Source of the DNA: Amphiscolops sp. MND2022
Lineage: Eukaryota
Length of the DNA stretch: 64,000 nt
Reading direction: 5' to 3'
NCBI GenBank assembly: GCA_964187785.1
Contig: OZ076409.1
Location: 2,418,001-2,482,000, forward strand
Position numbers and translations under genes: made by a program. Shown piece after piece: positions 10,777 through 54,509 of the stretch. The notes below the pieces were generated by a model, which did no database searches, was not told where the DNA came from, and was given only the letters and a program-made list of their open reading frames with translations. Each line of letters opens with the position of its first letter. The stretch's first letter is position 1.

Positions 10777-11160
10777 ATACAGGAGTTCCGAACTCGTATG
10801 GCAAGCAAGCCTCTTTTAATTAGCGATAGAAAAATTGTCGTCCAATTTCACGAAAAACTTCATTTAGGTAAGAGAGTTCATCAGAATTATTCGAGAGAAT
10901 TGTGACCCATAAAAAAGTTCAACGTATTACTTTGAGCAAATCAAGAACCAAAGATGAGTGTACAGTCTGATGACATAAATGTGAGTCTGATGACTGAATT
11001 GAACTGTCATTCGAAAAGCAGCTTTGGATGTCTATCGAAAAGCGCGAAACGTTTTCGATCTGTGTGTGATTTTAAAATAAGACGGGAACGTCTCAAGTCG
11101 GCGCTGTAGCTAAGACTTGAAAAGCGCAAAGTTTTTAAAATATGCTCAGGGCATTTTTTA

Positions 11161-11577
11161 CACAGAGGCGAAGCCGTGCTTCGCAAACACTTGCGAAGAA
11201 AGTTGCGAACTTTTGAAGAAACCCAAATAAGCAATATCATACGGAGAGCCAAGGGTAAAAGGACATTATTGTTAAAATTCCATCAATTTTACAGCGCCAA
11301 AAAATCCCGAAGGGATACCCATAAATCCCGAAAACAATACTTCTCCAACTGGAAACAACAGAAAACCCATCTTTCTCAACCGTAAACCTTTAAAAAATAG
11401 AAAATTGAGGAAAAAATTTTTCGAAAATTTTTTTGATGAAGGTCTCCGGCAAGTCGCATAGTGCCGAAAACCTTGAACACTGCTTTATGCTCGCAAAACG
11501 TTTCGTTCCTAGTAAAAATTGAGGGGGCTTCGATGAAAACAAGTTAGAAACATAGGCGCAAAGGAATTTGCGCACGG
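11161..11577 (-). mobile_element. Helentron-type family B copy
   Basis: Terminal CACAGAG-GCGAAGC-CGT-GCTTCGC hairpin; body similar to 46653-47050. Confidence 0.6.
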
Positions 11578-13906: not shown

Positions 13907-14060
13907 AAAAAAAAAACCAAAACGCTAGTAAACGCGGAACAATAGAGACTTCGTCGCTTCGTTTCGCTCGCTCGAAGCCTCAAAAAAAACCAAAACGCTA
14001 GTAAACGCGGAACAATAGAGACTTCGTCGCTTCGCTTCGCTCGCTCGAAGCCTCAAAAAA
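13907..14060. repeat. ~72-bp tandem duplication
   Basis: AAAAACCAAAACGCTAGTAAACGCGGAACAATAGAGACTTCGTCGCTTCG.TTCGCTCGCTCGAAGCCTC twice. Confidence 0.9.
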
Positions 14061-16423: not shown

Positions 16424-16574
16424 CTTGTAGGGTGCATTTGAAGACAGAACTGTATTTGTCGCCCAAAATGAACGTGTGACCCAATTCGATTGTTTGGTGA
16501 CTGGAGGGAGTGCCAGAACCACTGGTTTTAGCAAGCGATGACTCAACTTCCGGGTGGAAAAAGGTGTCCGAATC
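16424..16574 (-). CDS. PARS2: PARS2 coding exon
   Basis: TTTTGTCTAG| acceptor, CAAG|GTATGC donor (phase 1); DSDTFFHPEVESSLAKTSGSGTPSSHQTIELGHTFILGDKYSSVFKCTLQ matches GIEVGHTFYLGTKYSS. Confidence 0.92.
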
Positions 16575-17174
16575 CTAGACAAAAACCCAATATAAAAGTT
16601 ACAGAAACACCATAGTTCGAAAGTTCACATCATTTAGTGGACTAATTCCTGCTGTTGAATGAAAATCCGCATCCAGTTCGTTTCCACCGAAACTTTCGTA
16701 GCAACACATGATATTTAAAGAATACCGAAAGCGAGTGCGTTATGTTTATTGACGACACGAGAATGACGTGACAGGAGAATGACAGGAGAAAAATGACGTA
16801 AAGAACGTCTATCTTAACCTGACGTTGACTTATATCATTTTTTGTTCACTCCCAGACATGATTTTGATGTCAAAAGTGCTCTATTGGACCTTCGGTGGTG
16901 ACTAAATCACCACGATGATTTACGCGCTTCATTCGCTTTTAAAAATGTTGTTTTACATACTGGGTCGAATCCAAGGCCGTTCGTGGTGCGAGCCTTCTGA
17001 TTCGTTCACAGAACAACTGTGTGCGTTATTAGTAAAACGGAAAACCACCCCAGGTCGTTTAAGGTGCGGGCCTACTATTCCGTGAGGAATAGTGAAACGA
17101 GAAAACCGGTTTTTGATGTCATGATCGAAGTTACGTATCTGTAAACGTTTTTGTTTATCCATTAAATTATGAGT

Positions 17175-17468
17175 TTCTTAGGTTTAGGTCAAGTTTCTTT
17201 TGCTTGTGTTTTTCCGGCTTAGGTTACCAGGAATAAATTTCTTAGGATTACATTTCTTAGGTTTATATCTCTTAGGCTTAGGTTTCTTAGGATCATATTT
17301 CTTACGATTAGCTTTCTTAGGCTTAGGTTTCTTATGATTAGGTTACTTAGGCTTAGGTTTCTTAGGCTTACGTTTCTAAGATTTAGGTGTCTTAGGCTTA
17401 GGTGTCTTCGGCTTAGGTGGGTTAGGCTTAGGTTTTCTAAATTGGTTCTTGGGTTTAGGTTTCATAGG
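17175..17468 (+). repeat. Degenerate TTAGG(C/T)-rich simple repeat, present in each array unit
   Basis: Many TTAGGC / TTAGGT / TTTCTTAGG motifs in tandem. Confidence 0.85.
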
Positions 17469-18029
17469 CCAACTAACATTTTAAATTATGTTTTCATTTT
17501 TACAGGATCAGCAGCTCTTCGTCTTCGAGCCCAGCTGCAGCAGGGGAAAGAAATGAACATTTTCAAGATAATCTTCAAGAATGTGAACAGTTGATCATTT
17601 CTATTTCAAGAGTGTTCAAGAAAAATTCAAGATTCAGCTTTCAATCTTTTTTTTTACAAGAGTGTGCCGAAAGAAGGATTTCCAAGAGTGTGCCAGAAAG
17701 GAAGAAATCAAGCTTCAGCAGCCACATTTTTTTTTAAAAAAAAGCGTTACGGATCCAAATTTTCTCAATCACTAAATTTATTCTAAAACCAATATTTCAT
17801 TTTTTGGTTATTATCAAATAACATTCTACTTTCCTTACTTTTAAAGAAAAAAATAATAATGTTAACGTTGTTATTCTCATTCCACGTCAGTTGTAATATA
17901 ACAAAACCTCAAGCTCAGATATTGATTCAGCCCGCTAATACTGAAGCAATATTTTTCATTTGACGATTTTGGTTTTATGGAATTTTGACCATGATTAAAG
18001 AGTCTCCGTTTTCAGTTATTCTCTCCTTT

Positions 18030-18631
18030 ATGGTCAAGGTATTGGTTATTGGTGATAGTCACCATGAAAGAATCAGGATAAGTAATTTGAACTTTGCAGC
18101 AGACGTTGACGCTCGTGGCGGAAAAAAAGCCCATCATCTCTCGGAAAACACTTTTAACACCATTTTAAAAAATACGATGCAATCTTTGTTCTCCTTGGTG
18201 GCAATGGCGTTCACTCTCATGATTACTATAACCCTAACCCAAAAACGTCAACGGAAACGGCTGAACAATTAATCAGTAGTCAATTTGTTCTAGAAACACT
18301 GCATTTGGTTCTGTTCAAATTCACTTATGAAGAAATGTCGAAAATTCTAGCCACAACATTTATCTGAAATATTTGACTTTTCTATTTTTAAAAAAATCAT
18401 AAATGGTTCTTCTCTTAAATTTACTACTGTATAAGAACTTCAACGCTTCTGCAATGAGGACTGCATGAAGATTGTTACATCTTTGGTGTTCTGCCGCGAC
18501 TGGACTGCCCGGAGATACCCCAATTAAATGAGCTGCTATTTAAAAGCATTCATTCAAATTTTGTTGGATCTGCAAAAATTGTGGAAATTAGCCATGTTGA
18601 CAAGCGAGATCGTGTGCATTTGAGAAAATGA
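18030..18631 (+). pseudogene. SGNH/GDSL hydrolase pseudogene, array unit 1
   Basis: Block I VLVIGDSH, block II RGG, block III IFVLLGGN (after a frameshift in an A-run), probable intron, then IFGVLPR..LNELL..DKRDRVHL (block V DxxH). Confidence 0.75.
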
Positions 18632-20475
18632 GTATTATGAACTGACAACGCTCATTAACAAACTTTACAAAGATGCCTATACTGATGACTCAGATGAATA
18701 AAACGAAACATTTGTAAAATTCAATCTTTTCTTCCCGTAAAGTTATGGTTCAGAAAATTTTTTTTACAAATCACATTTTTATTTGATCCTGTTATGTAGT
18801 TCACATTGGTAAGACGTGTAAACCTAACCCTAGTAGTTTCTTCTCTCGAAATCCCCAAAAACTTCAAACATTTCTCAGTTTTTTTGTATCGATAACGTTC
18901 CATAAAAACTGCAGGTGTCTACACTAATTTGATGCTTTTAAGCAATTAACAATTTCATTTATACTCATCTGAAACAATTTTGTTGAATTTGGCGTCTCAT
19001 CCATTCGAACTTCAGTAAAGTGGCAGAAATTTAGTTACTTAGCAATGAAATATGTTTTACATCATTCTCAGTTTCGAAAAGAATGAAATAAAATATGGTG
19101 TCGGGTGAAAAAAGGTGTCCGAATCCTAGACAAAAACCCAATATAAAAGTTACAGAAACACCATAGTTCGAAAGTTCACATCATTTAGTGGACTAATTCC
19201 TGCTGTTGAATGAAAATCCGCATCCAGTTCGTTTCCACCGAAACTTTCGTAGCAACACATGATATTTAAAGAATACCGAAAGCGAGTGCGTTATGTTTAT
19301 TGACGACACGAGAATGACGTGACAGGAGAATGACAGGAGAAAAATGACGTAAAGAACGTCTATCTTAACCTGACGTTGACTTATATCATTTTTTGTTCAC
19401 TCCCAGACATGATTTTGATGTCAAAAGTGCTCTATTGGACCTTCGGTGGTGACTAAATCACCACGATGATTTACGCGCTTCATTCGCTTTTAAAAATGTT
19501 GTTTTACATACTGGGTCGAATCCAAGGCCGTTCGTGGTGCGAGCCTTCTGATTCGTTCACAGAACAACTGTGTGCGTTATTAGTAAAACGGAAAACCACC
19601 CCAGGTCGTTTAAGGTGCGGGCCTACTATTCCGTGAGGAATAGTGAAACGAGAAAACCGGTTTTTGATGTCATGATCGAAGTTACGTATCCGTAAACGTT
19701 TTTGTTTATCCATTAAATTATGAGTTTCTTGAGTTTAGGTCAAGTTTCTTTTGCTTGTGTTTTTCCGGCTTAGGTTACCAGGAATAAATTTCTTAGGATT
19801 ACATTTCTTAGGTTTATATCTCTTAGGCTTAGGTTTCTTAGGATCATATTTCTTACGATTAGCTTTCTTAGGCTTAGGTTTTCTAAATTGGTTCTTGGGT
19901 TTAGGTTTCATAGGCCAACTAACATTTTAAATTATGTTTTCATTTTTACAGGATCAGCAGCTCTTCGTCTTCGAGCCCAGCTGCAGCAGGGGAAAGAAAT
20001 GAACATTTTCAAGATAATCTTCAAGAATGTGAACAGTTGATCATTTCTATTTCAAGAGTGTTCAAGAAAAATTCAAGATTCAGCTTTCAATCTTTTTTTT
20101 TACAAGAGTGTGCCGAAAGAAGGATTTCCAAGAGTGTGCCAGAAAGGAAGAAATCAAGCTTCAGCAGCCACATTTTTTTAAAAAAAAAAGCGTTACGGAT
20201 CCAAATTTTCTCAATCACTAAATTTATTCTAAAACCAATATTTCATTTTTTGGTTATTATCAAATAACATTCTACTTTCCTTACTTTTAAAGAAAAAAAT
20301 AATAATGTTAACGTTGTTATTCTCATTCCACGTCAGTTGTAATATAACAAAACCTCAAGCTCAGATATTGATTCAGCCCGCTAATACTGAAGCAATATTT
20401 TTCATTTGACGATTTTGGTTTTATGGAATTTTGACCATGATTAAAGAGTCTCCGTTTTCAGTTATTCTCTCCTTT

Positions 20476-21077
20476 ATGGTCAAGGTATTGGTTATTGGTG
20501 ATAGTCACCATGAAAGAATCAGGATAAGTAATTTGAACTTTGCAGCAGACGTTGACGCTCGTGGCGGAAAAAAAGCCCATCATCTCTCGGAAAACACTTT
20601 TAACACCATTTTAAAAAATACGATGCAATCTTTGTTCTCCTTGGTGGCAATGGCGTTCACTCTCATGATTACTATAACCCTAACCCAAAAACGTCAACGG
20701 AAACGGCTGAACAATTAATCAGTAGTCAATTTGTTCTAGAAACACTGCATTTGGTTCTGTTCAAATTCACTTATGAAGAAATGTCGAAAATTCTAGCCAC
20801 AACATTTATCTGAAATATTTGACTTTTCTATTTTTAAAAAAATCATAAATGGTTCTTCTCTTAAATTTACTACTGTATAAGAACTTCAACGCTTCTGCAA
20901 TGAGGACTGCATGAAGATTGTTACATCTTTGGTGTTCTGCCGCGACTGGACTGCCCGGAGATACCCCAATTAAATGAGCTGCTATTTAAAAGCATTCATT
21001 CAAATTTTGTTGGATCTGCAAAAATTGTGGAAATTAGCCATGTTGACAAGCGAGATCGTGTGCATTTGAGAAAATGA
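20476..21077 (+). pseudogene. SGNH hydrolase pseudogene, array unit 2
   Basis: Copy of 18030-18631 with the same frameshift. Confidence 0.75.
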
Positions 21078-23026
21078 GTATTATGAACTGACAACGCTCA
21101 TTAACAAACTTTACAAAGATGCCTATACTGATGACTCAGATGAATAAAACGAAACATTTGTAAAATTCAATCTTTTCTTCCCGTAAAGTTATGGTTCAGA
21201 AAATTTTTTTTACAAATCACATTTTTATTTGATCCTGTTATGTAGTTCACATTGGTAAGACGTGTAAACCTAACCCTAGTAGTTTCTTCTCTCGAAATCC
21301 CCAAAAACTTCAATTTCTCAGTTTTTTTTGTATCGATAACGTTCCATAAAAACTGCAGGTGTCTACACTAATTTGATGCTTTTAAGCAATTAACAATTTC
21401 ATTTATACTCATCTGAAACAATTTTGTTGAATTTGGCGTCTCATCCATTCGAACTTCAGTAAAGTGGCAGAAATTTAGTTACTTAGCAATGAAATATCTG
21501 TTTTACATCATTCTCAGTTTCGAAAAGAATGAAATAAAATATGGTGTCGGGTGAAAAAAGGTGTCCGAATCCTAGACAAAAACCCAATATAAAAGTTACA
21601 GAAACACCATAGTTCGAAAGTTCACATCATTTAGTGGACTAATTCCTGCTGTTGAATGAAAATCCGCATCCAGTTCGTTTCCACCGAAACTTTCGTAGCA
21701 ACACATGATATTTAAAGAATACCGAAAGCGAGTGCGTTATGTTTATTGACGACACGAGAATGACGTGACAGGAGAATGACAGGAGAAAAATGACGTAAAG
21801 AACGTCTATCTTAACCTGACGTAGACTTATGTCATTTTTTGTTCACTCCCAGACATGATTTTGATGTCAAAAGTGCTCTATTGGACCTTCGGTGGTGACT
21901 AAATCACCACGATGATTTACGCGCTTCATTCGCTTTTAAAAATGTTGTTTTACATACTGGGTCGAATCCAAGGCCGTTCGTGGTGCGAGCCTTCTGATTC
22001 GTTCACAGAACAACTGTGTGCGTTATTAGTAAAACGGAAAACCACCCCAGGTCGTTTAAGGTGCGGGCCTACTATTCCGTGAGGAATAGTGAAACGAGAA
22101 AACCGGTTTTTGATGTCATGATCGAAGTTACGTATCCGTAAACGTTTTTGTTTATCCATTAAATTATGAGTTTCTTAGGTTTAGGTCAAGTTTCTTTTGC
22201 TTGTGTTTTTCCGGCTTAGGTTACCAGGAATAAATTTCTTAGGATTACATTTCTTAGGTTTATATCTCTTAGGCTTAGGTTTCTCAGGATCATATTTCTT
22301 ACGATTAGCTTTCTTAGGCTTAGGTTTCTTATGATTAGGTTACTTAGGCTTAGGTTTCTTAGGCTTACGTTTCTAAGATTTAGGTGTCTTAGGCTTAGGT
22401 GTCTTCGGCTTAGGTGGGTTAGGCTTAGGTTTTCTAAATTGGTTCTTGGGTTTAGGTTTCATAGGCCAACTAACATTTTAAATTATGTTTTCATTTTTAC
22501 AGGATCAGCAGCTCTTCGTCTTCGAGCCCAGCTGCAGCAGGGGAAAGAAATGAACATTTTCAAGATAATCTTCAAGAATGTGAACAGTTGATCATTTCTA
22601 TTTCAAGAGTGTTCAAGAAAAATTCAAGATTCAGCTTTCAATCTTTTTTTTACAAGAGTGTGCCGAAAGAAGGATTTCCAAGAGTGTGCCAGAAAGGAAG
22701 AAATCAAGCTTCAGCAGCCACATTTTTTTTAAAAAAAAAAGCGTTACGGATCCAAATTTTCTCAATCACTAAATTTATTCTAAAACCAATATTTCATTTT
22801 TTGGTTATTATCAAATAACATTCTACTTTCCTTACTTTTAAAGAAAAAAATAATAATGTTAACGTTGTTATTCTCATTCCACGTCAGTTGTAATATAACA
22901 AAACCTCAAGCTCAGATATTGATTCAGCCCGCTAATACTGAAGCAATATTTTTCATTTGACGATTTTGGTTTTATGGAATTTTGACCATGATTAAAGAGT
23001 CTCCGTTTTCAGTTATTCTCTCCTTT

Positions 23027-23628
23027 ATGGTCAAGGTATTGGTTATTGGTGATAGTCACCATGAAAGAATCAGGATAAGTAATTTGAACTTTGCAGCAGA
23101 CGTTGACGCTCGTGGCGGAAAAAAAGCCCATCATCTCTCGGAAAACACTTTTAACACCATTTTAAAAAATACGATGCAATCTTTGTTCTCCTTGGTGGCA
23201 ATGGCGTTCACTCTCATGATTACTATAACCCTAACCCAAAAACGTCAACGGAAACGGCTGAACAATTGATCAGTAGTCAATTTGTTCTAGAAACACTGCA
23301 TTTGGTTCTGTTCAAATTCACTTATGAAGAAATGTCGAAAATTCTAGCCACAACATTTATCTGAAATATTTGACTTTTCTATTTTTAAAAAAATCATAAA
23401 TGGTTCTTCTCTTAAATTTACTACTGTATAAGAACTTCAACGCTTCTGCAATGAGGACTGCATGAAGATTGTTACATCTTTGGTGTTCTGCCGCGACTGG
23501 ACTGCCCGGAGATACCCCAATTAAATGAGCTGCTATTTAAAAGCATTCATTCAAATTTTGTTGGATCTGCAAAAATTGTGGAAATTAGCCATGTTGACAA
23601 GCGAGATCGTGTGCATTTGAGAAAATGA
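23027..23628 (+). pseudogene. SGNH hydrolase pseudogene, array unit 3
   Basis: Copy of 18030-18631 with the same frameshift. Confidence 0.75.
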
Positions 23629-25582
23629 GTATTATGAACTGACAACGCTCATTAACAAACTTTACAAAGATGCCTATACTGATGACTCAGATGAATAAAA
23701 CGAAACATTTGTAAAATTCAATCTTTTCTTCCCGTAAAGTTATGGTTCAGAAAATTTTTTTTACAAATCACATTTTTATTTGATCCTGTTATGTAGTTCA
23801 CATTGGTAAGACGTGTAAACCTAACCCTAGTAGTTTCTTCTCTCGAAACCCCCAAAAACTCCAAACATTTCTCAGTTTTTTTGTATCGATAACGTTCCAT
23901 AAAAACTGCAGGTGTCTACACTAATTTGATGCTTTTAAGCAATTAACAATTTCATTTATACTCATCTGAAACAATTTTGTTGAATTTGGCGTCTCATCCA
24001 TTCGAACTTCAGTAAAGTGACAGAAATTTAGTTACTTAGCAATGAAATATCTGTTTTACATCATTCTCAGTTTCGAAAAGAATGAAATAAAATATGGTGT
24101 CGGGTGAAAAAAGGTGTCCGAATCCTAGAAAAAAACCCAATATAAAAGTTACAGAAACACCATAGTTCGAAAGTTCACACCATTTAGTGGACTAAATCCT
24201 GCTGTTGAATGAAATTCCGCATCAGGTTCGTTTCCACCGAAACTTTCGTAGCAATACATGATGTTTATGGAATACCGAAAGCGAGTGCGTAATGTTTATT
24301 GACGACACGAGAATGACGTGACAGGAGAATGACAGGAGAAAAATGACTTAAAGAGGGTCTCTCTATCTTAACCTGACGTTGACTTGTTATTTTTTGTTCA
24401 CTCCCACAGACACGATTTTGATGTCAGAAGTGCTTCATTGAACCTTCGGTCGTGACTAACTCTTTCCCACGATGATTTACGCGCTTCATTCGCTTTTAAA
24501 AATGTTGTTTTACATACTGGGTCGAATCCAAGGCCGTTCGTGGTGCGGGCCTTCTGATTCGTTCACAGAACAACTGTGTTCGTTATTAGTAAAACGGAAA
24601 ACCACCCCAGGTCGTTTAAGGTGCGGGCCTACTATTCCGTGAGGAATAGTGAAACGAGAAAACCGGTTTTTGATGTCATGATCGAAGTTACGTATCCGTA
24701 AACGTTTTTGTTTATCCATTAAATTATGGCTTTCTCAGGTTTAGGTCAAGATTCTTTTGCTTGTGTTTTTTCGGCTTAGGTTACCAGGAATGAATTTCTT
24801 AGGATTACATTTCTTAGGTTTATATCTCTTAGGCTTAGGTTTCTTAGGATCATATTTCTTACGATTAGCTTTCTTAGGCTTAGATTTCTTATGATTAGGT
24901 TACTTAGGCTTAGGTTTCTTAGGCTTACGTTTCTAAGATTTAGGTGTCTTAGGCTTAGGTGTCTTCGGCTTAGGTGGGTTAGGCTTAGGTTTTCTAAATT
25001 GGTTCTTGGGTTTAGGTTTCATAGGCCAACTAACATTTTAAATTATGTTTTCATTTTTACAGGATCAGCAGCTCTTCGTCTTCGAGCCCAGCTGCAGCAG
25101 GGGAAAGAAATGAACATTTTCAAGATAATCTTCAAGAATGTGAACAGTTAATCATTTCTATTTCAAGAGTGTTCAAGAAAAATTCAAGATTCAGCTTTCA
25201 ATCTTTTTTACAAGAGTGTGCTTAAAGAAGGATTTCCAAGAGTGTGCCAGAAATGAAGAAATCAAGCTTCAGCAGCCACATTTTTTTTAAAAAAAGCGTT
25301 ACTGATCCAAATTTTCTCAATCACTAAATTTATTCTAAAACCAATATTTCATTTTTTGGTTATTATCAAATAACATTCTACTTTCCTTACTTTTAAAGAA
25401 AAAAAATAATAATGTTAACGTTGTTATTCTCATTCCACGTCAGTTGTAATATAACAAAACCTCAAGCTCAGATATTGATTCAGCCCGCTAATACTGAAGC
25501 AATATTTTTCATTTGACGATTTTGGTTTTATGGAATTTTGACCATGATTAAAGAGTCTCCGTTTTCAGTTATTCTCTCCTTT

Positions 25583-26165
25583 ATGGTCAAGGTATTGGTT
25601 ATTGGTGATAGTCACCATGAAAGAATCAGGATAAGTAATTTGAACTTTGCAGCAGACGTTGACGCTCGTGGCGGAAAAAAAGCCCATCATCTCTCGGAAA
25701 ACACTTTTAACACCATTTTAAAAAATACGATGCAATCTTTGTTCTCCTTGGTGGCAATGGCGTTCACTCTCATGATTACTATAACCCTAACCCAAAAACG
25801 TCAACGGAAACGGCTGAACAATTAATCAGTAGTCAATTTGTTCTAGAAACACTGCATTTGGTTCTGTTCAAATTCACTTATGAAGAAATGTCGAAAATTC
25901 TAGCCACAACATTTATCTGAAATATTTGACTTTTCTATTTTTAAAAAAATCATAAATGGTTCTTCTCTTAAATTTACTACTGTATAAGAAATTCAACGCT
26001 TCTGCAATGAGGACTGCATGAAGATTGTTACATCTTTGGTGTTCTGCCGCGACTGGACTGCCCGGAGATACCCCAATGAGCATTCATTCAAATTTTGTTG
26101 GATCTGCAAAAATTGTGGAAATTAGCCATGTTGACAAGCGAGATCGTGTGCATTTGAGAAAATGA
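25583..26165 (+). pseudogene. SGNH hydrolase pseudogene, array unit 4
   Basis: Copy with an additional ~19-nt deletion near 26075. Confidence 0.75.
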
Positions 26166-29100
26166 GTATTATGTACTGACAACGCTCATTAACAAACTTT
26201 ACAAAGATGCCTATACTGATGACTCAGATAAATAAAACGAAACATTTGTAAAATTCAGTCTTTTCTTCCCGTAAAGTTATGGTTCAGAAAAAAATTTTTT
26301 ACAAATCACATTTTTATTTGATCCTGTTATGTAGTTCACATTGGTAAGACGTGTAAACCTAACCCTAGTAGTTTCTTCTCTCGAAACCCCCAAAAACTCC
26401 AAACATTTCTCAGTTTTTTTGTATCGATAACGTTCCATAAAAACTGCAGGTGTCTACACTAACTTGATGCTTTTAAGCAAATAACAATTTCATTTATACT
26501 CATCTGAAACAATTTTGTTGAATTTGGCGTCTCATCCATTCGAACTTCAGTAAAGTGGCAGAAATTTAGTTACATAGCAATGAAATATCTGTTTTACATC
26601 ATTTTCAGTTTCGAAAAGAATGAAATAAAATATAAAGATTACTGAGACTGGTGTCTGACCCATTCTGGGTAGTAACAGTGCCGGAGTTTCACCTAAGAAT
26701 TCCATTACAGATTTACAACTTTGTGAATACAAGTAAAAATACAACAATATAGATTGTAAATGTTGCTGAAACTGGTGTCTGACCTTATGGTGTTAACAGT
26801 ACCAGAAAATCAATTACAATTAGAAATAAACATAATTGCTACATCTTTTTGAGAAAAAAAGCTATGTAAAGTTTGCATAGGAAAGGTGTTTGACTTTTTC
26901 TAGATGAGAGCAGTGCGAGAATTACACTTAAATAGACATGAAACAATCCCCATTTCTTTTGACCATATCCATCAGATATTTGATCATTATAAACGTTACT
27001 GGGACTGGTGTCCGACGGTATTGAGTGTTAACAGTACCAGAAAATCAGTAACATTTACGAATGAACAAATTGCTATCATCGGTTTCAAATTAAGATAAAA
27101 GGAAAAAATCTGCTAACTGCAAATTGTTCCTTCAGTTTCAAATCAAAAACGCAAATCATGCCAGTAATCAATAACTAACTGTCCCTTGAAGAGGCTACCA
27201 CAGATCTTCATTACTTGTTGACGATGCTCCATGCAAAAAAGTGCATAAAGACTGTCTTTTTTCAAAGTTACGAATGGCCAGCGATCGAAGCACGAAAGTG
27301 CCTTCATAAAAACTCATTTTGTTGCGTAAATTTCGCAGTGACAAAATTGTTGCCATTTTCACTACGAATCAAACTGATAATGCTCAACTGCTGCGTTATT
27401 GCAGCAAACTTGTACCTGGTGTCGTGTGCGCTCTAATATGACCGAAGTTTGAGTCAAAAAATATGGGTACAACTTCCTCAACACCCATTATCACTACAGT
27501 GGAGCCTTTAGTCCCAATGAACTTGAAAGAGCTGCCGATTGTGTCCTGTCCCCGAGTGGTGTCGTCCGCGGACTTTTTACAGTTCCTCATCCAAACAAAT
27601 CACTTGTAACTGTCAAATGTAGATGCCGTTACGTCCGTATGCAATGGCATATTTTGCGACGGGCAACCACGTGCTCATTGTCCCTGCTTAGAGATTGACA
27701 ACAGAAAAACAGATTGGGCAATTTCTGCGGACATCGTTCGTCCAGAGCTGTTTCACTCGGCTGTCATTAGATCGAAACGATTACTTTCTTTTTGCCCCTT
27801 TGTGTAGAAATGCCGACCCGAACAAAAACTCGGTGTCCTAGATTTGGATGATTCTGTGAAAAAGCGCGTCAATCAAGTTAATGCAAATAGCGGATGGTTC
27901 TTGTGATCGATGCTTTATTGTGAACGAATCACATCTTCGCCGCTTCATGTTCTACCCAAAAAAGTGTGCAAAAACACCCAGCCGTCTTTGGATGCAATAT
28001 TTCAACGAACCATGTTGAAAGAATATCTTTGTGCGATCCATGGTTAAATTACTGCACCAATGGTCGTAGATCTTCATGGAAAGGAAGGCGTTTGACCGTG
28101 TGTTGTGCTAGACTTCAATGAAAAGTCTCCTATCGGAGGTAGTCGCCGACGATGCAACCATTTTCGAAGACCTTACAATGAAACTTGAAATCTGATAAAA
28201 TAGAGCCAATAAAAAAATCCACAACAAATTTTGTTTTCCTCAAGTGCGGTGCTCGATTGGATGTACATAATTTGTTGGTGAGAGGAACTATTCCTAATAA
28301 TATATCTTCAATAAAAAGGACCCCAAGTTCACGTACAACCTCACTAATTGGAAATCACGGCTGAACTCTCTCAGACCAGACTGGTCACAAGAGTATAACT
28401 AAAACGACTTTTTACTCTGAAGCCAAATGTAATGGTAGATAATGTCAATAGGTTGTGTATGGCTACATGTAAATTTCACAAGGGTGGATCAAGTAAACAC
28501 ATTGTTCATCCTCCAGCTAATCCAACTGGAAAGGCTGCCAAACAAGTTTGCCGACCGTTTGGCAGAGCAACTGTGAGTTAAAACTGTTACAAACCGACGA
28601 AACCGAACTAATTAACCCATACGTATTCAATGGGAATCGCCAAAGGCAGTCTTGCTGGTATTAGTTCCACCACTGTTTCGATGAAAAAATGGGATGCTGC
28701 GTTTGGAAAGGACGATGTTTCCCGTGAATTTTTGTGTTGCAACAAGCGCAAGGACATCCAGTTGCTTTTGCAAAAACGGGTTTCAAAAGAACTCTCACAC
28801 GATCTACTCAATAGTATCAGCTCAACTGATGTTTTGCCCATGCCGACCACATTTCCAACAGTCTTCAGATGACCACATCAGTTCCCATGAATCAGGCTCT
28901 GGCGCTGGAAAAATTCAGGAAACAGGACTGGTGGCGGATTATTTTCCTATTTTTCCCATTTGACAACTACGGATTCCACCCGTCCGACTTGAATTTTGCC
29001 AACATTGACCAACTTCATTTCTGGTGCTTTTCGGTAATGTTTTCATCGAGTACAACTTTTCATTCCTCTTTACTGGAATCAACGAGTATTGAAGAAAAAT

Positions 29101-30545
29101 CCCTTTGCAACATATTCGAGATGATGCTTTCCATTGGGGCTAAGAAGCCAACAAAACGACAACGATCGGAGTTGGAGTCCTTTTTTGCTACCAGTTTCCA
29201 AAATATTACATCTAATTATGTGAACAATTTGAAGATAACACTTTCCAGAATAATTTTTCAAACTATCAAGAAGTTACCCGAGAATATGTTGAGCAAACTT
29301 TAACATCCTGTTGTACAGAGAAAGGTGTTTCGTTCGTGACCTCTTCCAGAGGGAGTTGCATCCAATGCATCCTGTTTACCTGATCGACTAATATCAAGTA
29401 ATGGAATAGATACCTATGAATTGAGATCAATTACTCTTTTTGAACAAAAGAATGCAAAAACAGTTGACAAACGGCGGAGTAATTTCCTGCTGGTGGTTGT
29501 ACTCTAGGTCCTCAAAATCGCCTTCAAAAGTGGATGTTGCTGATATTGTTGAAATGGGTCGATATCACATGAATTGGTCCTTCTGCCATTACGAGCTGAT
29601 AGATTCCATTGATTCGCGCTAATTAAAGTACCAATATTTGGAATATTATGGGGGGGGCAGGGAAAGTTCATTTGCCACAACCACCAAATGCCACTAACTG
29701 TTAACCCCAAACACAACAACCAATGTTCGATCGGAAAATCTTGCAAACGAATAGTTAAATGAAAATGCCCATCTGATGATTGTTCTTCTGCAATTTGTGA
29801 AAAACATTCCAAAACATCTAGTCTTGACGGAGGCCGCCTTTTTGTAAAACCAACTCCAATTGTAAAAACAAATAATGAAGAAATAACAACGAGTCATGCA
29901 GAAACACACATCCACAGACGTTTCGGACACAGAATCGGAAGTAAAAGATTTTTCTTTCGTCAATAACGCAACTGACGCTGGTCTTAATGCCACCGCAACT
30001 GAATTCAGCGTTACTGATTCCGGTTGCATGTGTGATAGATCAAAACGACAAGACAATGCCAGTGCAGATACTGCTGAACAGTGACTGCCTAGTACTCCAG
30101 AAGTATTGCTTCAGAAACGACTGTAAAAAAGCCACAATGTTTTGCAGAAACCGCTTCGCATGCTGATTCTGTTCCTCTTTTTTACCCCGAAGGTGCGCTT
30201 TTTTCGACACTTTGTATCACGAACAAGCTGATATACAATAACGGGGCTATACCTGCTCCTCTCTACAGTGTGAAAGTTAGCAAACAATTCAGCTTTGCTT
30301 CAGTTGAGAATCACAAAAAGGACGGCCTTGTTGAATCCGAATCTTTTACAGTCAACAGAAATCCGAAGCATCCAGACTTCATTTGACTGTTTTCAACCAT
30401 CAACTAAAATTTCCCGTCAAGCTTTGTTCTCAATCGTGATTTTCAGGAAGTTCCATCAAATGAACATAAAACTATCACACCAGACAACGTGATACTGTAA
30501 TTTGAGGAGGCTGATTCCAGAGTTCGCGAGAACAAACTTGCTGCT

Positions 30546-31250
30546 TTGTTGTCAGAGAAACCACCAGCTTTCTTCTTGACATTAACATGCAACCAGGAAG
30601 AACATTTAAGAGTAAAACCAATTTTTCACGCGTTAAAAACTAAGTATGACCGATGCAACAAAGAAGAGAGGGAAAAAGCAGTTCAAGCAGAATTTGTGCT
30701 GCTTACGAGGGCATGGTATCGTTCCGCTGAGGCTCTCCTGCAATATATTGAAAAATCCCCTGAAAAGTCTTTAGGTACAGTCACCAAGATTTGGTCCCGG
30801 TACGAGTTCCAGTCTGCAGAAAGAAATCTACCGCACATTCATGACATTATCTGGACGAAGGAACTCGAAGAGTTGAAAGTAAAAGTTGTCTGTGCAAGTA
30901 ATTCCGCGTTGTTTGAGTTCAAACTTATTTGTGAACCGACCTTCCAGATTTGATGGATCAACTGATGCAGTTCCAAACATGCGAAAAGGTCAGTTTCCGA
31001 TGCCACACTGTGACAAAAGACGATGGCTCCTCAACTTGTAGAGTGCCCCGCTATCCTTTCGCTACACGTTACACCTGGCGAAAAGTGCCTTCTTGCCACA
31101 CCGACGGAGCACTAGAACAACTTTATCACTTAACTTTGGCCGTTCCTTCTCCCACACAAGACAACAACTTTGAAGTTCGCCCTATACTGCAAGGAGGTAA
31201 ATTCGAGTACCCTGCTTCTGCTGACAAAATTCTATCACCATTTAAAAAAA
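30546..31250 (+). pseudogene. Helitron-like HUH Rep endonuclease domain (disrupted)
   Basis: Motif 1 FFLTLTCN, motif 2 WSRYEFQSAERNLPHIHDIIW, then Q..TC....RC........CRVPRYP; catalytic YxxKY motif not found (deleted). Confidence 0.8.
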
Positions 31251-31299
31251 TCCGATGGTCACATTCAGCAAGTTCGCGCATCAGGTACTCCATATAAGC

Positions 31300-31900
31300 T
31301 TTTTGAAACAACTGATGAAATCTGTCTCGCCAAGAGCAAAATTTGGACGACTGTAACTGACTCTGAACAAGTAACGAACCACCGGAACAAGGTGAACGAA
31401 CCGAAACTCATTGTTTATCCGAAGGCGTTGTTGAGAGTCACACTCAACATGAAAGAGGAACAACTGTCTCATAGTCAAGTAGGAGTGGTTCATGAAGTTC
31501 CCACTGGTGACTCGGTCACATTTTGCATACCCGACAGCAGCGGAGGCGAAGTAACCATTACCTTTGAAAGAATCGAATAGGAACAATATTTGACCTGGAG
31601 GTCTGTGACTTTTAGAAAACAAATGGGATTAGTGCAGGCTTTTAGGAAAAAAGTCAGTAAGACATCAGCAGCTCCCTCTGATGAATTCCTTTGCCTGACA
31701 ACGCACAAGCTCACGGGTGACATGTTTGACAAACTCGCAACGTCAATCTCGGCCAACGGAAATAATGCCCTGCGGATGACGTCCCAGGGTTCCGTCATAT
31801 TCAGTCAAGTGAAGCAACAAAAAAACCTGACTTTTGTCGGACCGAAATCGGAAACTTTGAATGCTGTGAGGAAAATTTTAGAGACAGACGTGAAGAACAT
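31300..31900 (+). pseudogene. C-terminal remnant of a PIF1-family helicase
   Basis: KLIVYPKALLRVTLNM....SHSQVGVV (2B region), LCLTTHKLTGDMF (motif V-like), SQGSVIFSQVKQQKNLTFVG (motif VI-like); Walker A/B region missing. Confidence 0.7.
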
Positions 31901-31999
31901 ATGTTTAGCTTAATGGATCGCATTAGGAATAACTCACGCTCTGGTTCCACCGTCGAGACCATTATCTCTAGAATGCTGTTCGTTCAGTTTAACAAAATG

Positions 32000-32318
32000 A
32001 TACCAGAGACACCAAATGTTTATCTTCTGACAAGTGTCAATCCAAACTCGGCAGGAACTTTTTACATCGGCCAAACAAGTAGGGCGTTGTTGAACTAGTT
32101 TCTAGGGGCACAATACCGGGAATAGCGCTGAATTCACGAAAGTACACCACCGACTACCGTGGGCTGTTGCCGCTTTTATTTGTAACTTTGCGTCCTCGAA
32201 TTCCCAGAAAGATTTAAAAGAACTACATCGTCGTAAAATTGCTTGGCGGCACACTTTAAAATCTCTAGAAGAAATGATTGCACTTTTCCACAAAAAGTTT
32301 GATTCCAAGTTATTATGA
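32000..32318 (+). pseudogene. GIY-YIG (SLX1-like) endonuclease domain, disrupted
   Basis: VYLLTS.....TFYIGQT, then after a frameshift/stop HNTGNSAEFTKVHHRLPWAVAAFICNF. Confidence 0.75.
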
Positions 32319-33515
32319 GGCTTTCTTGAACGTAGGCACTGTTGAATATCGCACAAAGCGCGACTACAGATGGTGGACACCCTGCTATATTCAAGGGCAA
32401 AGTTCGATAAGTTATTCGAAGGTGAGTAATGTATGAAATTCAATTTTCTACTTTAAAAGTTAAAGTAGATTTAAAAATTTCATCATCTTGCTTAAACAAT
32501 GCTGAGTATCGCAAAAAGTTCGAATGAAGAGGGTGGACACCGTGCGATAATCAAAACTTTTATTTTCTTTATGTATAATTCATGCGATACAGATGGTTTG
32601 GTTACTTTTTTGCACTTGAATGGGACACATGCTGAAAAGTAGAAGAGAAGGGACGAACTCAACAGCGGATGACACGGCAAGTAGCTAAAGTCTACATGTA
32701 CCTGCCACGCTTTAGTTATAGGAATTCATTTAGGAAAATTTTTTACTTGAAAGACACTTGAATGCTTTCGGATTCTTCGTGAAACTCGAAAATCAAAACT
32801 TCGTTTCAATACTTAGATTGGGTGGACAACGTTTAGGAATTTAGGTCTTAGTTCTTTGTGAGGTGGATTCAAAAGAAGTTAGTTGAGCAAAAAAAACAAC
32901 TGAATTTCAGAGATATGAACAAACAAAACTGAGGGAAAATCAACAATATAAAACAGGCTACAACGTAGAATTACATTTCCATTCATAAACATGAACATGT
33001 ACACGTAAGCACTATACAACGAAATTTCGTACAATTACTTTTCGAAACACAACATAAAAATTATTGAATACACATGAAAATCAGCAAATTATAGCAGCAG
33101 AGACATTTACAAAACATTAAATTTGTATCAGGTCACGTATTTGAGATAGTCAGCGAAAACAACCGAACAGGTGAAAAATAGGGCTTTTTTGTGTCCAAAA
33201 TAAAATGGCGGACTACACGATATGAGGGAAAATACTTGTTAACTGGATCATTCACATCTATTTTAGGTGCACTGTTATGGTTTTAATAATTGCAATTGCG
33301 TTTAAGTAAAATCATGCCTCGATAATGGATCCCTGCTCCATGGGTCAGAAGAGTGGTTAGAAAGGCTGTTCCTCGCAAATGTCATCGTAGATCGAAATCA
33401 GTAGAACAGTACACTTGATCTTTTCTGTCTGTTGTTGTTTTGTTGTTCTGTTCGTTTCTATTCTCTATCTGCGTTGCATTATGGTCACTAAATCTCGGAC
33501 ATTTTCATAAAAGTC

Positions 33516-36684: not shown

Positions 36685-37030
36685 GAACCAGTTCCTACCG
36701 CCTTTAAATCTCGGACTGAATCAAATATTACCACTAAGTGTAGACGAAGTTTCACATTCGCATTTGAATGCAGGCGACGCTCTCAACGAACGAATGATTA
36801 ACACTCATTCGCTTCATCTCAATAACTCGGCGTACGAAAGCATAAATAACACTCGCTCGCTTCATCGCACGAGAATTGAATTGCAGTCGGCAGCTTGAGA
36901 AATTTAATTCTCACGCTTAGAGTCACTGTCGAACAAAATATCTGAATTCTTCAGTATCACGACACGAATTGCACTGAAAAGGGAATTGAGATTTCAATAA
37001 AATTCCTGCTACCGCAGAAATCATAATAGA
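36685..37030. repeat. Interspersed repeat shared with ~52820-53180 and ~59300-59660
   Basis: Shared ACCAGTT..ACCGC.TTTAA...GTAGACGAAGTTTC.CATTCGCATTT...CGTACGAAAGCATAA...GTCGGCAGCTT. Confidence 0.7.
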
Positions 37031-37042
37031 AAGTTCACTTAC

Positions 37043-37249
37043 AGGACACTTGTACAGGGTATCCTCGCCAACTTCAGCCAGCAGGTGAAACTCGTGTGAC
37101 AAAAGTCCCCCCATGGCCCCAGAGGGTGCTGCTACCTCCACCAGCAGCCGGGAGAGGCCAATCTCTCGGAACAAGAGTCTATAAGCCGTTCTCACTTCGT
37201 CGTAGAAGCGAGAACAGTCGTCAAGGTCACTGTGGAAACTGTACATGTC
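37043..37249 (-). CDS. PARS2: PARS2 coding exon
   Basis: CCTGAAG| acceptor, CCT|GTAAGT donor; DMYSFH...AYRLLF...GAMGGLLSHEFHLLAEVGEDTLYKCP. Confidence 0.95.
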
Positions 37250-37671
37250 CTTCAGGCGAACCAAGATTGGAATTGAAATTATGTAATCACTTAAACAGTT
37301 ACGGAAAAAACGAAGATCAGATGTTAAATTGAATGCATTTCGGAAAATATTCCATATGCACTGTTTCATAAGTTTATCACAACAATTAGGCTATCACGCG
37401 ACAACGTCTAAGAAATCAAATATTCGTCGTCTAATGTGGGTGAAGTATCGAGAGGTTGAAACAGCCAACAATCAAAACCGACAGCAGTGAAACGATCATT
37501 GTTCTCTTATTTTTGAACCTCCAAAAAGCTCAAATTTTCGACATTTGAATGTTATTACGGTGGCATGAAAGGGCACTTGACGATTAAGGAGCACCGGAAA
37601 ATACGCCTTGAAAACCTAATGCTGAAGTAAAATCTATTCAGCCACAACTTTGGCTACTATTTATCTTGTAA

Positions 37672-41990: not shown

Positions 41991-42346
41991 TATAACAGCA
42001 CTTAATTTTTTGGCACTGTAAATTGGTCAAAACTTTCACAATAGCATCCCTTTGCATAGTTATAATACATTATTCAGTGGTGCGGCGAGGCGCAGAAAGG
42101 AGCAACAAGCAACCAGAAGAAACTCTCCACTCGTCATTACCAGGTTGTTTCGTTCCTTTTTGTTTTCTGTGCTCTGTTTTGAGCTTTTAGTGCTCCTTCT
42201 TGGAGCTTTTAGTGCTCTTTTTTGGAGCTTTTAGTGCTCTTTTTTTGAGCTTGTAATGCTCTTTTTGGGTCCTCGATTTTGAAAGATTTTAGCCCTTTTG
42301 AGACTCAAATGATCCATCGATACTGCTCCGTCCGTTTTGTTTCAGG

Positions 42347-42886
42347 ATGTCACGCTTTGAACCCAGACAGCTGAGCCAACGAACAACAAATCTTGTGATT
42401 GGCAAATTCAGAACGAAATACATTAGGTCAAAAGACATCGATGCAGCAGTTCACTCTTGTCGCGGTGTCTCCCTGCTCCAGCTCTGTAATCTGATCACAC
42501 AATACCCGCAGCGCAAAATAAATACCCTTATCATTGTCGCTGGTTTTAATAATCACCGTGAAGCAGCTACTACATTTACAGACAATTGGAAGTTTCTGAT
42601 TCAGCTAGTGTACCTGAAGTTCCAACCCCGTCACCCCAATATCTCCAAAACCATCGCAACTTCTAACAACCAGTCAGTCAATAGAAAAATCGACCAGCTG
42701 ATATTTGCCCTCTACAATCTACTACGCTTCATCAACCTGTTTATAATATCACCTCATTTTAATCGTGATTTTGATCACAAGATTTTTGCCCGAGACGGCA
42801 TTCATTTTTCTAGATTTGGAAATTTAGTTTCCTCTCAGATTTTGAAACTATATTTTAATCACTTTACATGTAATCAAATCAAATAA
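42347..42886 (+). CDS. SGNH esterase-like ORF (179 aa), putative ORF1; block I serine mutated
   Basis: NLVIGKF (GDS position), HSCRG, LIIVAGFNN (GxN), FARDGIHFSRFG (DxxH). Confidence 0.7.
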   Translation: MSRFEPRQLSQRTTNLVIGKFRTKYIRSKDIDAAVHSCRGVSLLQLCNLITQYPQRKINTLIIVAGFNNHREAATTFTDNWKFLIQLVYLKFQPRHPNISKTIATSNNQSVNRKIDQLIFALYNLLRFINLFIISPHFNRDFDHKIFARDGIHFSRFGNLVSSQILKLYFNHFTCNQIK

Positions 42887-42912
42887 TTGACACGACAGCT
42901 CTCCCTCCACAA

Positions 42913-45754
42913 TGTTAGGCAATTAAACACATTGCAGCATTTGCCAGACCCATTTACGTAGTCCCGGCGTATGGTGTGCGATATGTGGATACGTGCACAC
43001 GATATGCAGCGGTCTCTCCGCTGCAAAAGACTAGTCCAAAGATTTTATCTGTGTACGCTACCATGGACCACAGCCAAGCGAAGCCGCCAACTCACCAGCC
43101 ATCGAACCACTGATTAACAGTTCAACAAGTCACGTGAGCACCGCCATACACCAGAAACAACCCATAACTGACGAAATGAACGAAGAACTATCAGCGGATG
43201 GTTTGTGGGCAAAAGTCACACGCTGAAAAGCAATTCAACTTGAAGAATTTTCATTGGAAACCTTCATTCATCACGCTGCCTGAAAACAAAACTGGTCACA
43301 AGTTCGTCGAGAAAATGGACCGCGTACTATCTGCAATATCAGAGAAACGAAGCATTGAGAACATAGCTTTATATGCAGCATTGTCAATGCTTCATTTAGT
43401 ATTATCAAGGAATACCTGTGAGCCAGATGCGTCGAGGAACAAGACGACGACCAGAAGACTGAGAATGTGGCTAAATGGCGAAATCGAAAAACGTTTCAAG
43501 GAAGCACAGGCATTGCAGAAACGAACAACGAAATGAAAATCCAACAGAGCAAGAGATATGTTCCGAGATTTCGATCCACACATGTCCGCCGCGAAAATCT
43601 CAGATGCCCTACGGAGTGTTAACGAATGTCAAAAAGGCGGGTAGTTCTATCCCTTTCACAAAAAATTGACAACAAGTTGGTTCTCGATAATTTGAAGGAG
43701 AAACACACCCAGCCAAAAGTTGCGACGACACTTCGTAGTTGCAAGTTCCGAAAACATTCCGCCTTACCATCCCGTAATCTTCGACAGAATACAAGCAGGT
43801 GTATGAAGAAAGTGATAGTGAAGCACTAAGGCAATACAATGCCTGCCGCTTGATACCCCTTGACAAGAACCCAGAAGTACGACAAATTGGGGATGGGGAA
43901 GTTCTCAGACGAATCATAGGAAGAAGCATACTGCGCTGTATAGAGAACGACCTGAAGCTCTTAGGTAAAAACAAACAACTTTGTCTCGGTTAGAAATGCG
44001 AAATCGAATATGCTATACATAGCCTCAGGCACCAGCTCGAGACCCCTGAAGTTCCAGGGACTTTGGTCATCGATGCAAAGAACGCTTTTAATAGCTTGAA
44101 CAGGGATCTCGCGCTCCGGCACATCGAAAATCTATGTCCTTCAATTATAACAGCTATCAAGAATTCGTACAAAACACCGACAAATGTTTTTGTCAACGGC
44201 AAAACCTTGCAATCGCAAGAGGGAACAACTCAATGAGATCCTCTAGCCATGGCGATGTGCGGAATTGCTATCTTACAGTTGCTTGACCTGATCCAAAAAG
44301 CAAACATCACTCACAAGTGGTACGCTGACCATGGTAATGTAACAGGCAGTCTCAAAGACCTAAAAACGGTTCACGAACAATTGAAAAAACACGGACTTGC
44401 TTTCGGCTACACAATGACGAAATGTAACATCATTGCAAAAAACCGATAATTTGAAACAAGTTCAGAATCTATTTATCAAAGAAGAGTTAGAAATTGTTGA
44501 TGGACATCGTGTCCTCGGGTCGGTAATAGGATCAGAATCTGCTTGTGACAAATTCAGAAACTATAAACAAAGTGAATACAATCAGATCGTAGAGAAATTG
44601 TCGAAACACGCAAAAAGTTCTACCCAAAATGTATTTCACTGCTTTACCAAAGGTCTCCCAAACAAAGTCTTTTCTCTCGCGCACGACTCCTAATTTTATT
44701 GAAAATCTCCAAGAAATGGAAAGAAAGATCAAGGAGAACCTGATCCCAGCAATAACCGGCAAAAGTGACATCACGGACGAGGAACGTTCTCTTTTCTCCC
44801 TGCCTGTGAGGAATGGTGAACTTAACATAGTACATCCTGAAGAATTGAACTGGTCGAGACAAATGGCAGCATGTTCAGACTATGACGATGACGCGGAAGC
44901 TCAACATTCTTCAATTGTGAAACAAGATAAAGTCCGCAAAAATCAAAGAAAAGATATCAATCTTGGAGGAAAAACTAGATGAAAATCAACGCTAAGCACT
45001 AGATCTGTCAATTGAAAAAGGTGCTTCTAGCTGGTTGAACACGCTGCAACTCAAACGATATCACTTTGATTTAACGAAAACAGGATTCCGCGACGGTTTG
45101 GCTCTGCGCTATGGGTGGAAACCACTGAAAACACCGGCAATGTGTCCCTGTGGAGAGTTTTTCAGTCTCTCGCATTCCCTTCAATGCAACAAAGGAGAAT
45201 ACACCCAAATGCGACACAACAAAGCATCGCGACACGTCCGCCTCCGTTATGAAAGAAGTCTGCTATGATGTTGAAATCCTTCGTCCACAAAACAGCGACA
45301 ACTGAAGATGAGGCGAGATTAGACACTAGAGCAAACGGACTTTAGGGTTCTCGTTTCTGTAGAAATTGTTTCGACGTCAAAATCTTCAGCTCGCTCGCAA
45401 GAACATGTCCCAAAAATGTCAGCGAGGCATACAAATTTCACAAATCTCAAAAGAAACTCAAATACGAGTCCAGAATCAAAAATGTGGAAAAAAGCACCTT
45501 TCACCCCCTAGTCTTTGCATGTACAGGTGGCGCTGGACCATCAGCCACAAAAGTGATTACCCGACTAGCTGCAAAAATCAACGAAAAGCACAGAAAGCTA
45601 CGCCGACGCGATAAGCTACATTAGAACTAAGATAAGTTTTGCTCTTCTACGTAGTTCCGTCATCGGTCTCAGAGGGTGCAGAGCGACACGCCGCCAACCA
45701 GCAATCGTAGAGTCATCTATCAGTGCTACAGTTCACGAGGGAGGGCTGTCATAA
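42913..45754 (+). pseudogene. ORF2 relic: PHD-like finger, reverse transcriptase, CCHC knuckle, PD-(D/E)xK endonuclease
   Basis: CSIC....GVWCAICGYVHTICSGL; CRLIPLDKNPEVRQIGDGEVLRRIIG; IDAKNAFNSLNR; SQEGTTQ*DPLAM; WYADH (YADD); GASSWL..FRDGLALRYG..CPCG..HSLQC..RHN; ARLDTRA..FDVKI; many stops and frameshifts. Confidence 0.88.
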
Positions 45755-52026: not shown

Positions 52027-52189
52027 TGAGATTTTCAAGTGTGTCGTGAAAAATGTTCCATTCGACCGGTTTCTTAGGTCGTTTGTGATCTCGCAATACA
52101 CAACCCAATTGGGAAGGTGGCCAGTGATGATCATTTCCATTTCAAAAAAGATTTTTTCCTCAAAAATTATTTGCAAAACAATGATGTAA

Positions 52190-54458: not shown

Positions 54459-54509
54459 CTCAATTCGACAGTATGATATGAGCCCCAGTATGAAATTGCT
54501 AACCAACTA

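Follow-up and report, generated by a model that had tools for sequence, protein, structure and literature searches.

A RepHel relic and its neighbouring gene

The window, a 64,000-nt stretch of contig OZ076409.1 from Amphiscolops sp. MND2022, carries on its plus strand the remains of a Helitron-like Rep-helicase (RepHel) gene. The motifs quoted in a preliminary description of this DNA were all located on that strand and in the stated order: Rep motif 1 (FFLTLTCN, 30570-30593) and motif 2 (YEFQSAERNLPHIH, 30801-30842), the helicase motif V-like TTHKLTGD (31698-31721) and motif VI-like VIFSQV (31794-31811), and the GIY-YIG motifs VYLL (32018-32029), FYIGQT (32060-32077), GHNTG (32106-32120) and LPWAVAAFI (32154-32180). 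From 5' to 3', the gene comprises an N-terminal Cys/His-rich region of subfamily A (27919..28850; 39-57% identity to the intact relatives P0001 and P0002 by tblastn, with conserved Cys/His columns), a USP-fold domain without conserved catalytic residues (approximately 28950..29640), a Cys/His cluster of the form GGQ..C..H..C..C..CP..C..C..H (29652..29860), an HUH Rep domain of subfamily A (30150..31243; PF14214, 70% identical to P0001), the C-terminal half, with motifs V and VI, of a PIF1-type helicase of subfamily B (31245..31900; 41% to P0029), and an SLX1/UPF0213-type GIY-YIG domain followed by the C-terminus (32010..32318), this last segment interrupted by frameshifts and one stop.

The Rep piece matched Pfam Helitron_like_N (PF14214) above the cut-off (38.6 bits, E 1.7e-9); the helicase and GIY-YIG pieces of the window, taken alone, gave no relevant Pfam match. 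On the region, a profile of the family reached 209, 100, 95 and 68 bits, as against -3 or less on 20 shuffles and -7 or less on the remaining window, and the GIY-YIG sub-profile scored 29.8 bits, as against -0.1 or less for controls. Alignment to P0001 revealed 27 frameshifts and 8 stops across 1,072 codons, which confirms the initial view that this copy is dead. Rep motifs 1 and 2 are retained and motif 3, with its two tyrosines, is absent. The copy is a rearranged relic from which the catalytic tyrosines and the helicase core are gone, and it has no function of its own. No second copy of the element and no Rfam match were found within the 64,000 nt. Assignment of the DNA to an animal is weakly supported by an intron-containing RPL23 gene.

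Immediately upstream lie codons 1-272 of a decayed companion gene of about 315 codons (27158..27903, plus strand), 79% identical to the intact P0190, with 4 frameshifts, 4 stops and a Cys cluster (CNGIFCDGQ, 27640-27666). The interval originally assigned to the element, 27300..32318, thus holds for the RepHel part, but its first ~600 bases (27300-27903) belong to this separate gene. A homolog (E 8e-19) occupies positions 9075-10286 of locus L001, on the same strand as an intact RepHel-GIY ORF and 2.4 kb downstream of it; the ~315-aa gene therefore adjoins RepHel in two far-diverged loci (linkage n=2). Its top Atlas matches were POT1, CDC24 and MEIOB (0.90-0.91, with low recognition), a weak lead toward an OB-fold single-strand DNA-binding protein. 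The companion ORF had no match in Pfam or the PDB, its L001 homolog had none in the Atlas, and the predicted fold has a pLDDT of 31.

Three imperfect direct repeats upstream (26625-26685, 26749-26845 and 26986-27080; 75-86% identity between copies) and two downstream (32337-32394 and 32497-32554; 78%) are candidate left and right subterminal motifs. The upstream repeats fold no more stably than shuffles (z -0.8 to -0.9), hairpin folding of the downstream pair is not significant (z -0.7 and -1.6), and neither TTAGGG nor CCCTAA occurs in 26634-32560. The two sets have in common, in inverted orientation, a core of 6-7 bases, which is too short to serve as evidence and belongs to ends from different elements. 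A 2.5-kb tandem unit further upstream resembles neither the element nor the family proteins to any real degree and was therefore not treated as a non-autonomous derivative.

Junctions within the relic

Frameshift-aware alignments to P0190 and P0002 placed a first junction, a deletion, at 27903..27919, where the last ~42 codons of the companion gene and the first ~96 codons of RepHel are lost. At the second (31243..31254), a 5' part of subfamily A meets a 3' part of the distant subfamily B. The family profile skips here, at 31243/31245, from position 1337 to position 2069, leaving ~730 profile positions absent. The 5' part is 70, 64 and 59% identical to P0001, P0002 and P0003, respectively, and 29-33% identical to the P0029 group. 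This ranking reverses in the 3' part, which after frameshift correction shows 41% identity to P0029, 34-35% to P0033, P0070 and P0172, and 27% to P0002. The two parts also fall in different tree clades (support 100/97 and 99), the 3' part being grouped with P0029, P0070 and P0022 at 99 in a quick tree where the window sequence has a long branch.

The preliminary description had attributed the gap to deletion of the helicase core. The core is indeed absent, together with Rep motif 3, but, each half belonging to a different subfamily, more than a simple internal deletion is involved. A single element with a plain internal deletion, its 3' half appearing distant only through decay or faster evolution, would account for the correct order and strand of the halves, and the hidden frameshifts and long branch of the 3' half could be cited in its favour. 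Such an explanation is nevertheless very improbable and was rejected, given that frameshift correction leaves the 3' half closer to P0029 than to P0002, that the tree separates the halves, and that intact pairs with Rep identity of at least 45% retain 35-65% identity in the tail (95% in one near-duplicate pair). Compared with 1,225 intact pairs, the Rep-versus-tail identity of the window copy is an outlier (z -7, in an alignment uncorrected for hidden frameshifts). Judged by identity and phylogeny, the window copy is shown to be a fusion of halves from two subfamilies.

Intact relatives and the C-terminal nuclease

In the intact relatives, of 2,200-3,000 aa, a single ORF spans Rep, the PIF1 helicase and GIY-YIG, in the order: optional OTU, Cys/His region, USP-fold, Cys/His cluster, Y2 HUH Rep, PIF1 and SLX1-type GIY-YIG. 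In P0002, for example, PF14214, PF05970 and PF01541 each score above the cut-off. Thus, what was first proposed from the window is borne out, namely a divergent RepHel lineage with a long N-terminal extension and an SLX1-like nuclease at its C-terminus; the nuclease is in frame. The family comprises 754 clusters at 50% identity (E <=1e-3), of which the best 150 were inspected. Near-identical copies occur across several contigs of 0.1-1.5 Mb, with clusters of 6, 15 and 40 members, possibly from different samples. The mobility of intact members is argued from protein homology and cluster sizes.

Rep motifs 1-3 are present in the intact relatives, and Helraiser was the sole significant PDB match of the Rep profile (E 3e-4, motifs 1-3 aligned) as well as the top Foldseek match of the predicted Rep model (E 1.3e-3; all Foldseek E-values were above 1e-3). 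Downstream, Pfam PIF1 and PDB matches identify a fused SF1B PIF1 helicase. The canonical Helitron motif 2 reads EFQxRG(L/S)PHxH. None of 155 family proteins matches the Helraiser-type EFQxRGxxHxH, and the motif 2 spacer is 6-8 in all 104 proteins where the pattern located the motif. Among 19 long relatives, OTU scored above the Pfam cut-off in P0160 and P0073 and below it in P0172. The USP fold was recognized in family proteins, and viral USP proteins match it weakly. Neither a Cys at the helix start nor a His box, at the positions we take to be those of the catalytic boxes, is conserved in two alignments, one of 45 sequences and one of 28. An active USP was rejected on these grounds, and the domain is apparently inactive as a deubiquitinase. 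The adjacent cluster, whose columns (C716-C758 of P0002) are invariant in 28/28 aligned proteins, probably binds zinc.

The GIY-YIG domain was found in every relative with at least 130 aa beyond helicase motif VI (51/51, and 27/27 outside the training alignment); 8 relatives ending 0-74 aa past motif VI were left out of this count. Although most of the 51 are only 25-40% identical, the nuclease lies in frame beyond motif VI at near-constant spacing. Of 19 long relatives, picked for their long tails, 17 exceeded the cut-off for Pfam GIY-YIG. Solved structures closest to the family profile were SLX1 (E 3e-13) and UPF0213 (E 2e-5). Most of 53 aligned domains retain the residues presumed to be catalytic (Tyr in 51, the YIG Tyr in 46, Arg in 45, His in 48 and Glu in 44). 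The domain is visibly degenerate in about six relatives (P0027, P0070, P0106, P0134, P0148 and P0172), so cutting is not required in every lineage.

GIY-YIG domains are known as the endonucleases of Penelope-like elements (PMC6431247, as far as consulted), and the 3' half of this copy does derive from another element than the 5' half. Both points could suggest that the nuclease was inserted separately, for example as a Penelope fragment, behind an ordinary Helitron, the very outcome set beforehand as fatal to the proposal. It is scarcely credible: the foreign half spans both the nuclease and helicase motifs V-VI, no reverse transcriptase was detected by Pfam in 28 family proteins, and the in-frame conservation in 51/51 relatives marks GIY-YIG as a family trait. 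A passenger, homing-type or competitor-cutting domain with no part in transposition itself is a more serious contender, if still an unlikely one. The degenerate lineages fit such a role, as do viral modules linking helicases with GIY-YIG-family nucleases, for which homing has been proposed (PMC11296320, in the portion available), and the Helentron AP endonuclease, whose role is likewise reported as undetermined (PMC8788227, in the portion available). Retention of the domain in frame family-wide, with active-site residues in most members and SLX1 and UPF0213 proteins as nearest solved relatives, speaks against it. Finally, the family could be no transposon at all but a module for replicating an integrated virus or plasmid-like replicon, considering how distant its Rep is from Helraiser, the further uncharacterized 1,155-aa ORF in L001 and the weak match of viral USP proteins. 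This is very improbable. IMG/VR scans with P0002 and with the Rep and companion alignments gave no relative (they used short patterns, which distant relatives can escape); in short-pattern scans, phage and plasmid matches were confined to the helicase and prokaryote genomes yielded a single 2.5 kb MAG contig.

Proposed mechanism and comparison with known systems

Altogether, the data identify the region as the dead and rearranged remnant of a large, deep Helitron-like RepHel-GIY family, and it is likely that intact members move by Helitron-type rolling-circle transposition. Rep would nick one strand and keep hold of it, and the helicase would peel that strand away. On balance, we favor a role for GIY-YIG in cutting DNA with branches or flaps, either at the target or at the strand-transfer junction, in the slot taken by the AP endonuclease in Helentrons. 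The pseudo-USP could tentatively be seen as a ubiquitin- or chromatin-binding scaffold; a role for the companion protein in binding the displaced single strand, as proposed for the RPA-like genes of other Helitrons, is a still more speculative suggestion. The broader proposal falls just short of an even chance: that of an uncatalogued, ancient and widespread eukaryotic rolling-circle branch that belongs neither to HLE1 or HLE2 nor to the Paramecium clade, with two genes. One would encode a giant transposase that includes a pseudo-deubiquitinase together with a structure-specific nuclease of SLX1 type, for targeting or resolving branched DNA, and the other a dedicated single-strand-binding partner.

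AP-type and SLX1-type nucleases are unrelated and were apparently added independently at the same C-terminal position in two Helitron-like lineages, which suggests an unrecognized cutting step in rolling-circle transposition. Intact multi-copy members make the question of the nuclease's role testable. Because the family is strongly diverged, motif-based Helitron annotation may miss it.

Helitron-like elements have defined ends with hairpins and make no target duplication; HLE1 elements have 5'-TC and CTRR-3' ends and an AT target, HLE2 elements short asymmetric TIRs, a TT target and DUF6570 as a marker. Like Helentrons and other HLE2 elements, the family fuses a Y2 Rep to PIF1, adds a C-terminal nuclease and includes OTU in some members; unlike them, it has an SLX1-type GIY-YIG, a longer motif 2 spacer and a pseudo-USP within the transposase. 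No Pfam match to Exo_endo_phos (AP endonuclease) was found in 28 family proteins, where GIY-YIG occupies that position, nor one to DUF6570 at the thresholds used, a remote homolog being possible. Helraiser, an HLE1 protein (PDB 7lcc), is shorter (~1,500 aa), has a motif 2 spacer of 4, and matches the family in Rep and helicase only; neither the USP-fold region nor the nuclease tail gave a match to it.

That the family is uncatalogued, as the preliminary description supposed, holds in the searchable literature consulted (Repbase, Dfam and subscription papers lying outside this scope) save for one printed precedent, a Sphagnum HLE2 family, HelenSM92. By its description, this RepHel element has short TIRs and TT targets and carries GIY-YIG in several copies, reported as a capture (PMC11417382, in the part accessible). 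The third-clade Helitrons of Paramecium, with ORFs of 9-10 kb, resemble the family in length and fall outside HLE1 and HLE2 in the published tree (PMC13085455, in the part accessible, where "GIY" is absent from the text and 7 supplements). Insertion into telomeric repeats is a further mark of these elements. Identity with that clade was rejected from one copy inspected by eye, Hel01Copy001, which has a canonical short motif 2, ends ~75 codons past motif VI and lacks GIY-YIG. Replitrons have a Y1 Rep and no helicase (PMC10288648, in the part accessible), as opposed to two Rep tyrosines and a fused helicase here. SLX1 and UPF0213, the nearest solved relatives of the tail domain, match over SLX1 residues ~13-90 only; the family domain, in contrast to SLX1, is fused to a helicase within a multi-copy element and, in contrast to that of Penelope-like elements, is joined to PIF1 rather than to a reverse transcriptase. 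In conclusion, on the protein features open to testing, the family is distinct from Helitrons of the Helraiser type, from Helentrons and Replitrons, and from the Paramecium clade.

Domain architecture of the intact family

The preliminary description quoted Rep, PIF1 and GIY-YIG motifs from the window, and six-frame translation bears them out, all on the + strand and in the stated order, spread over three frames. The Rep piece passes the Helitron_like_N cut-off in Pfam. The region 27150-32320 scores 209, 100, 95 and 68 bits with a profile built from 28 intact relatives; 20 shuffles reach no more than -3 bits and the remaining window no more than -7. The window Rep ORF matches a stored family protein, P0001, at 72% identity, and P0001 as query retrieved the relatives P0002 and P0003; a complete search across 1.84 billion representatives returned 754 clusters at E <= 1e-3 (best 150 of 754 listed).

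P0002 is a single 2,268-aa ORF carrying Helitron_like_N, PIF1 and GIY-YIG, in this order, all above the Pfam cut-off. Helicase motifs V-VI are reached in 61 of 155 stored proteins, eight of which stop too soon after motif VI for GIY-YIG scoring. The domain is present in all 51 relatives with at least 130 residues beyond motif VI, in 27/27 such long-tailed proteins kept out of profile building, and in two further proteins with 113-114 residues past the motif; Pfam independently detects it in 17 of 19 long proteins, chosen for their long tails. The alternative that the nuclease is a separate insertion, such as a Penelope fragment, is contradicted by its presence in 51/51 long-tailed relatives, and the family does not classify with Penelope elements. 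The nuclease part of the family profile is nearest to SLX1 (E 3e-13) and also resembles UPF0213 proteins. Tyr, Tyr, Arg, His and Glu, which we take to be the active-site columns, are retained in 51, 46, 45, 48 and 44 of 53 aligned domains, respectively; the domain is visibly degenerate in about six lineages. At the N-terminus, Pfam places an OTU domain above cut-off in P0160 and P0073 and below it in P0172, while P0030 and P0054 bear long stretches beyond GIY-YIG that by eye look OTU- and Ulp1-type-like. Some members thus appear to have added protease-like domains.

The Rep of this family is a genuine HUH domain of the Y2 type. Helraiser is the sole significant PDB match of a Rep-only profile, with motifs 1, 2 and 3 aligned. 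The motif 2 spacer measures 6-8 residues in each of the 104 proteins in which the pattern located this motif, and its canonical form occurs in none of the 155 stored proteins. Several large contigs hold near-identical family copies, as expected of a transposon. The viral contigs searched yielded no relative, and phage and plasmid matches are confined to the helicase. The single match in prokaryote genomes is a 2.5-kb bacterial MAG contig (L004, JAAXHO010000138.1) filled by a family member, probably eukaryotic contamination.

A dead, doubly deleted chimera

The window copy was described as dead and lacking its helicase core, and this stands: at 31243/31245 the profile skips from position 1337 to 2069, which removes both catalytic tyrosines as well as helicase motifs I-IV. 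In frameshift-aware alignments P0001, P0002 and P0003 share 70, 64 and 59% identity with the 5' part, versus 29-33% for the P0029/P0022/P0033/P0070/P0025 group, while the 3' core is closest to P0029 (41%), followed by P0033, P0070 and P0172 (34-35%) and P0002 (27%). Identities of the two regions covary in 1,225 intact pairs, from which the window copy is an outlier (z -7, hidden frameshifts uncorrected). In trees of 30 and 29 rows, drawn from the 50 proteins that cover both regions together with P0001, P0029 and P0022 after dropping near-duplicates, the 5' part joins P0001 (support 100/97) and the 3' part joins the P0029 group (support 99, quick tree, long branch). The simplest origin of the chimera would be a deletion between two elements of the same family, neighbouring or nested; an assembly error is a conceivable alternative.

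Probable companion gene and genomic setting

The segment 27158-27903 matches none of the stored RepHel proteins; it represents a ~315-aa gene in decayed form and shows 79% identity to the intact P0190. A further deletion truncates it at codon 272 and also takes the first ~96 RepHel codons. In L001, a metagenome locus, an intact RepHel-GIY ORF is followed 2.4 kb downstream, on the same strand, by a homolog (26% identical). Pairing in two far-diverged loci points to a companion gene; two other loci, L002 and L003, do not extend far enough to show linkage. Atlas matches of the companion to the OB-fold families POT1, CDC24 and MEIOB (0.90-0.91, low recognition) provide a weak lead towards an OB fold; Pfam and PDB searches were blank, the L001 homolog had no Atlas match and the predicted fold is poor (pLDDT 31). 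Adjoining both genes in L001 is a 1,155-aa ORF (10567-14034, -), for which Pfam gave no meaningful match and which may belong to that element as its third gene.

The host is a eukaryote; its RPL23 (uL14) gene lies at 61900-63891 (-), in two exons separated by a ~1.5-kb intron. Attribution to an animal is plausible: the best PDB entries are presumably vertebrate, by a small margin over other eukaryotes. Four head-to-tail ~2.5-kb units (16551-26633; 95-98% identity), with an inner 15-base repeat rich in TTAGG, stop precisely at the start of the element's upstream repeats. The unit shows no similarity to family proteins, and 165 bases of it are found again, in inverted orientation, at 12282-12446. 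Exons resembling class II tRNA synthetase lie at 8170-8475 (-; Pfam anticodon-binding domain) and 36923-37390 (-; ProRS-like by eye only); if they form one gene, array and element sit inside its intron. Elsewhere we noted three ORF pieces at 42302-44982 (+) that by eye resemble a decayed non-LTR retrotransposon region (Pfam found no significant match), a tandem array of a 172-base unit (50402-51424), and a duplication (51757-54736 and 58536-61210; ~6.5-kb spacing, 98-99% identity).

Possible mechanism and relation to known elements

By analogy with Helraiser, Rep and helicase would drive rolling-circle transposition, the family presumably operating like a Helitron. The SLX1 relationship, together with a position matching that of the Helentron AP endonuclease, inclines us slightly towards a tail nuclease whose substrate would be branched or flapped DNA at either the target or the junction; that it is a passenger, or acts in a homing-type manner, is rather unlikely. 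More speculatively, the pseudo-USP region might bind ubiquitin or chromatin, and the companion protein might bind single strands.

At the protein level the family falls within the superfamily definition of Helitron-like elements. It differs from Helentrons, which carry an AP endonuclease, and from HLE2, which has the DUF6570 marker, Pfam giving a hit to neither domain in 28 family proteins; it also differs from Replitrons, and from the Paramecium third clade as judged by eye on one copy. In the searchable literature, the sole RepHel-GIY-YIG precedent found is HelenSM92, a Sphagnum family reported to carry GIY-YIG (PMC11417382). The family is apparently little described. HELIANO leaves elements of 19 genomes unclassified, and some of these could belong here.
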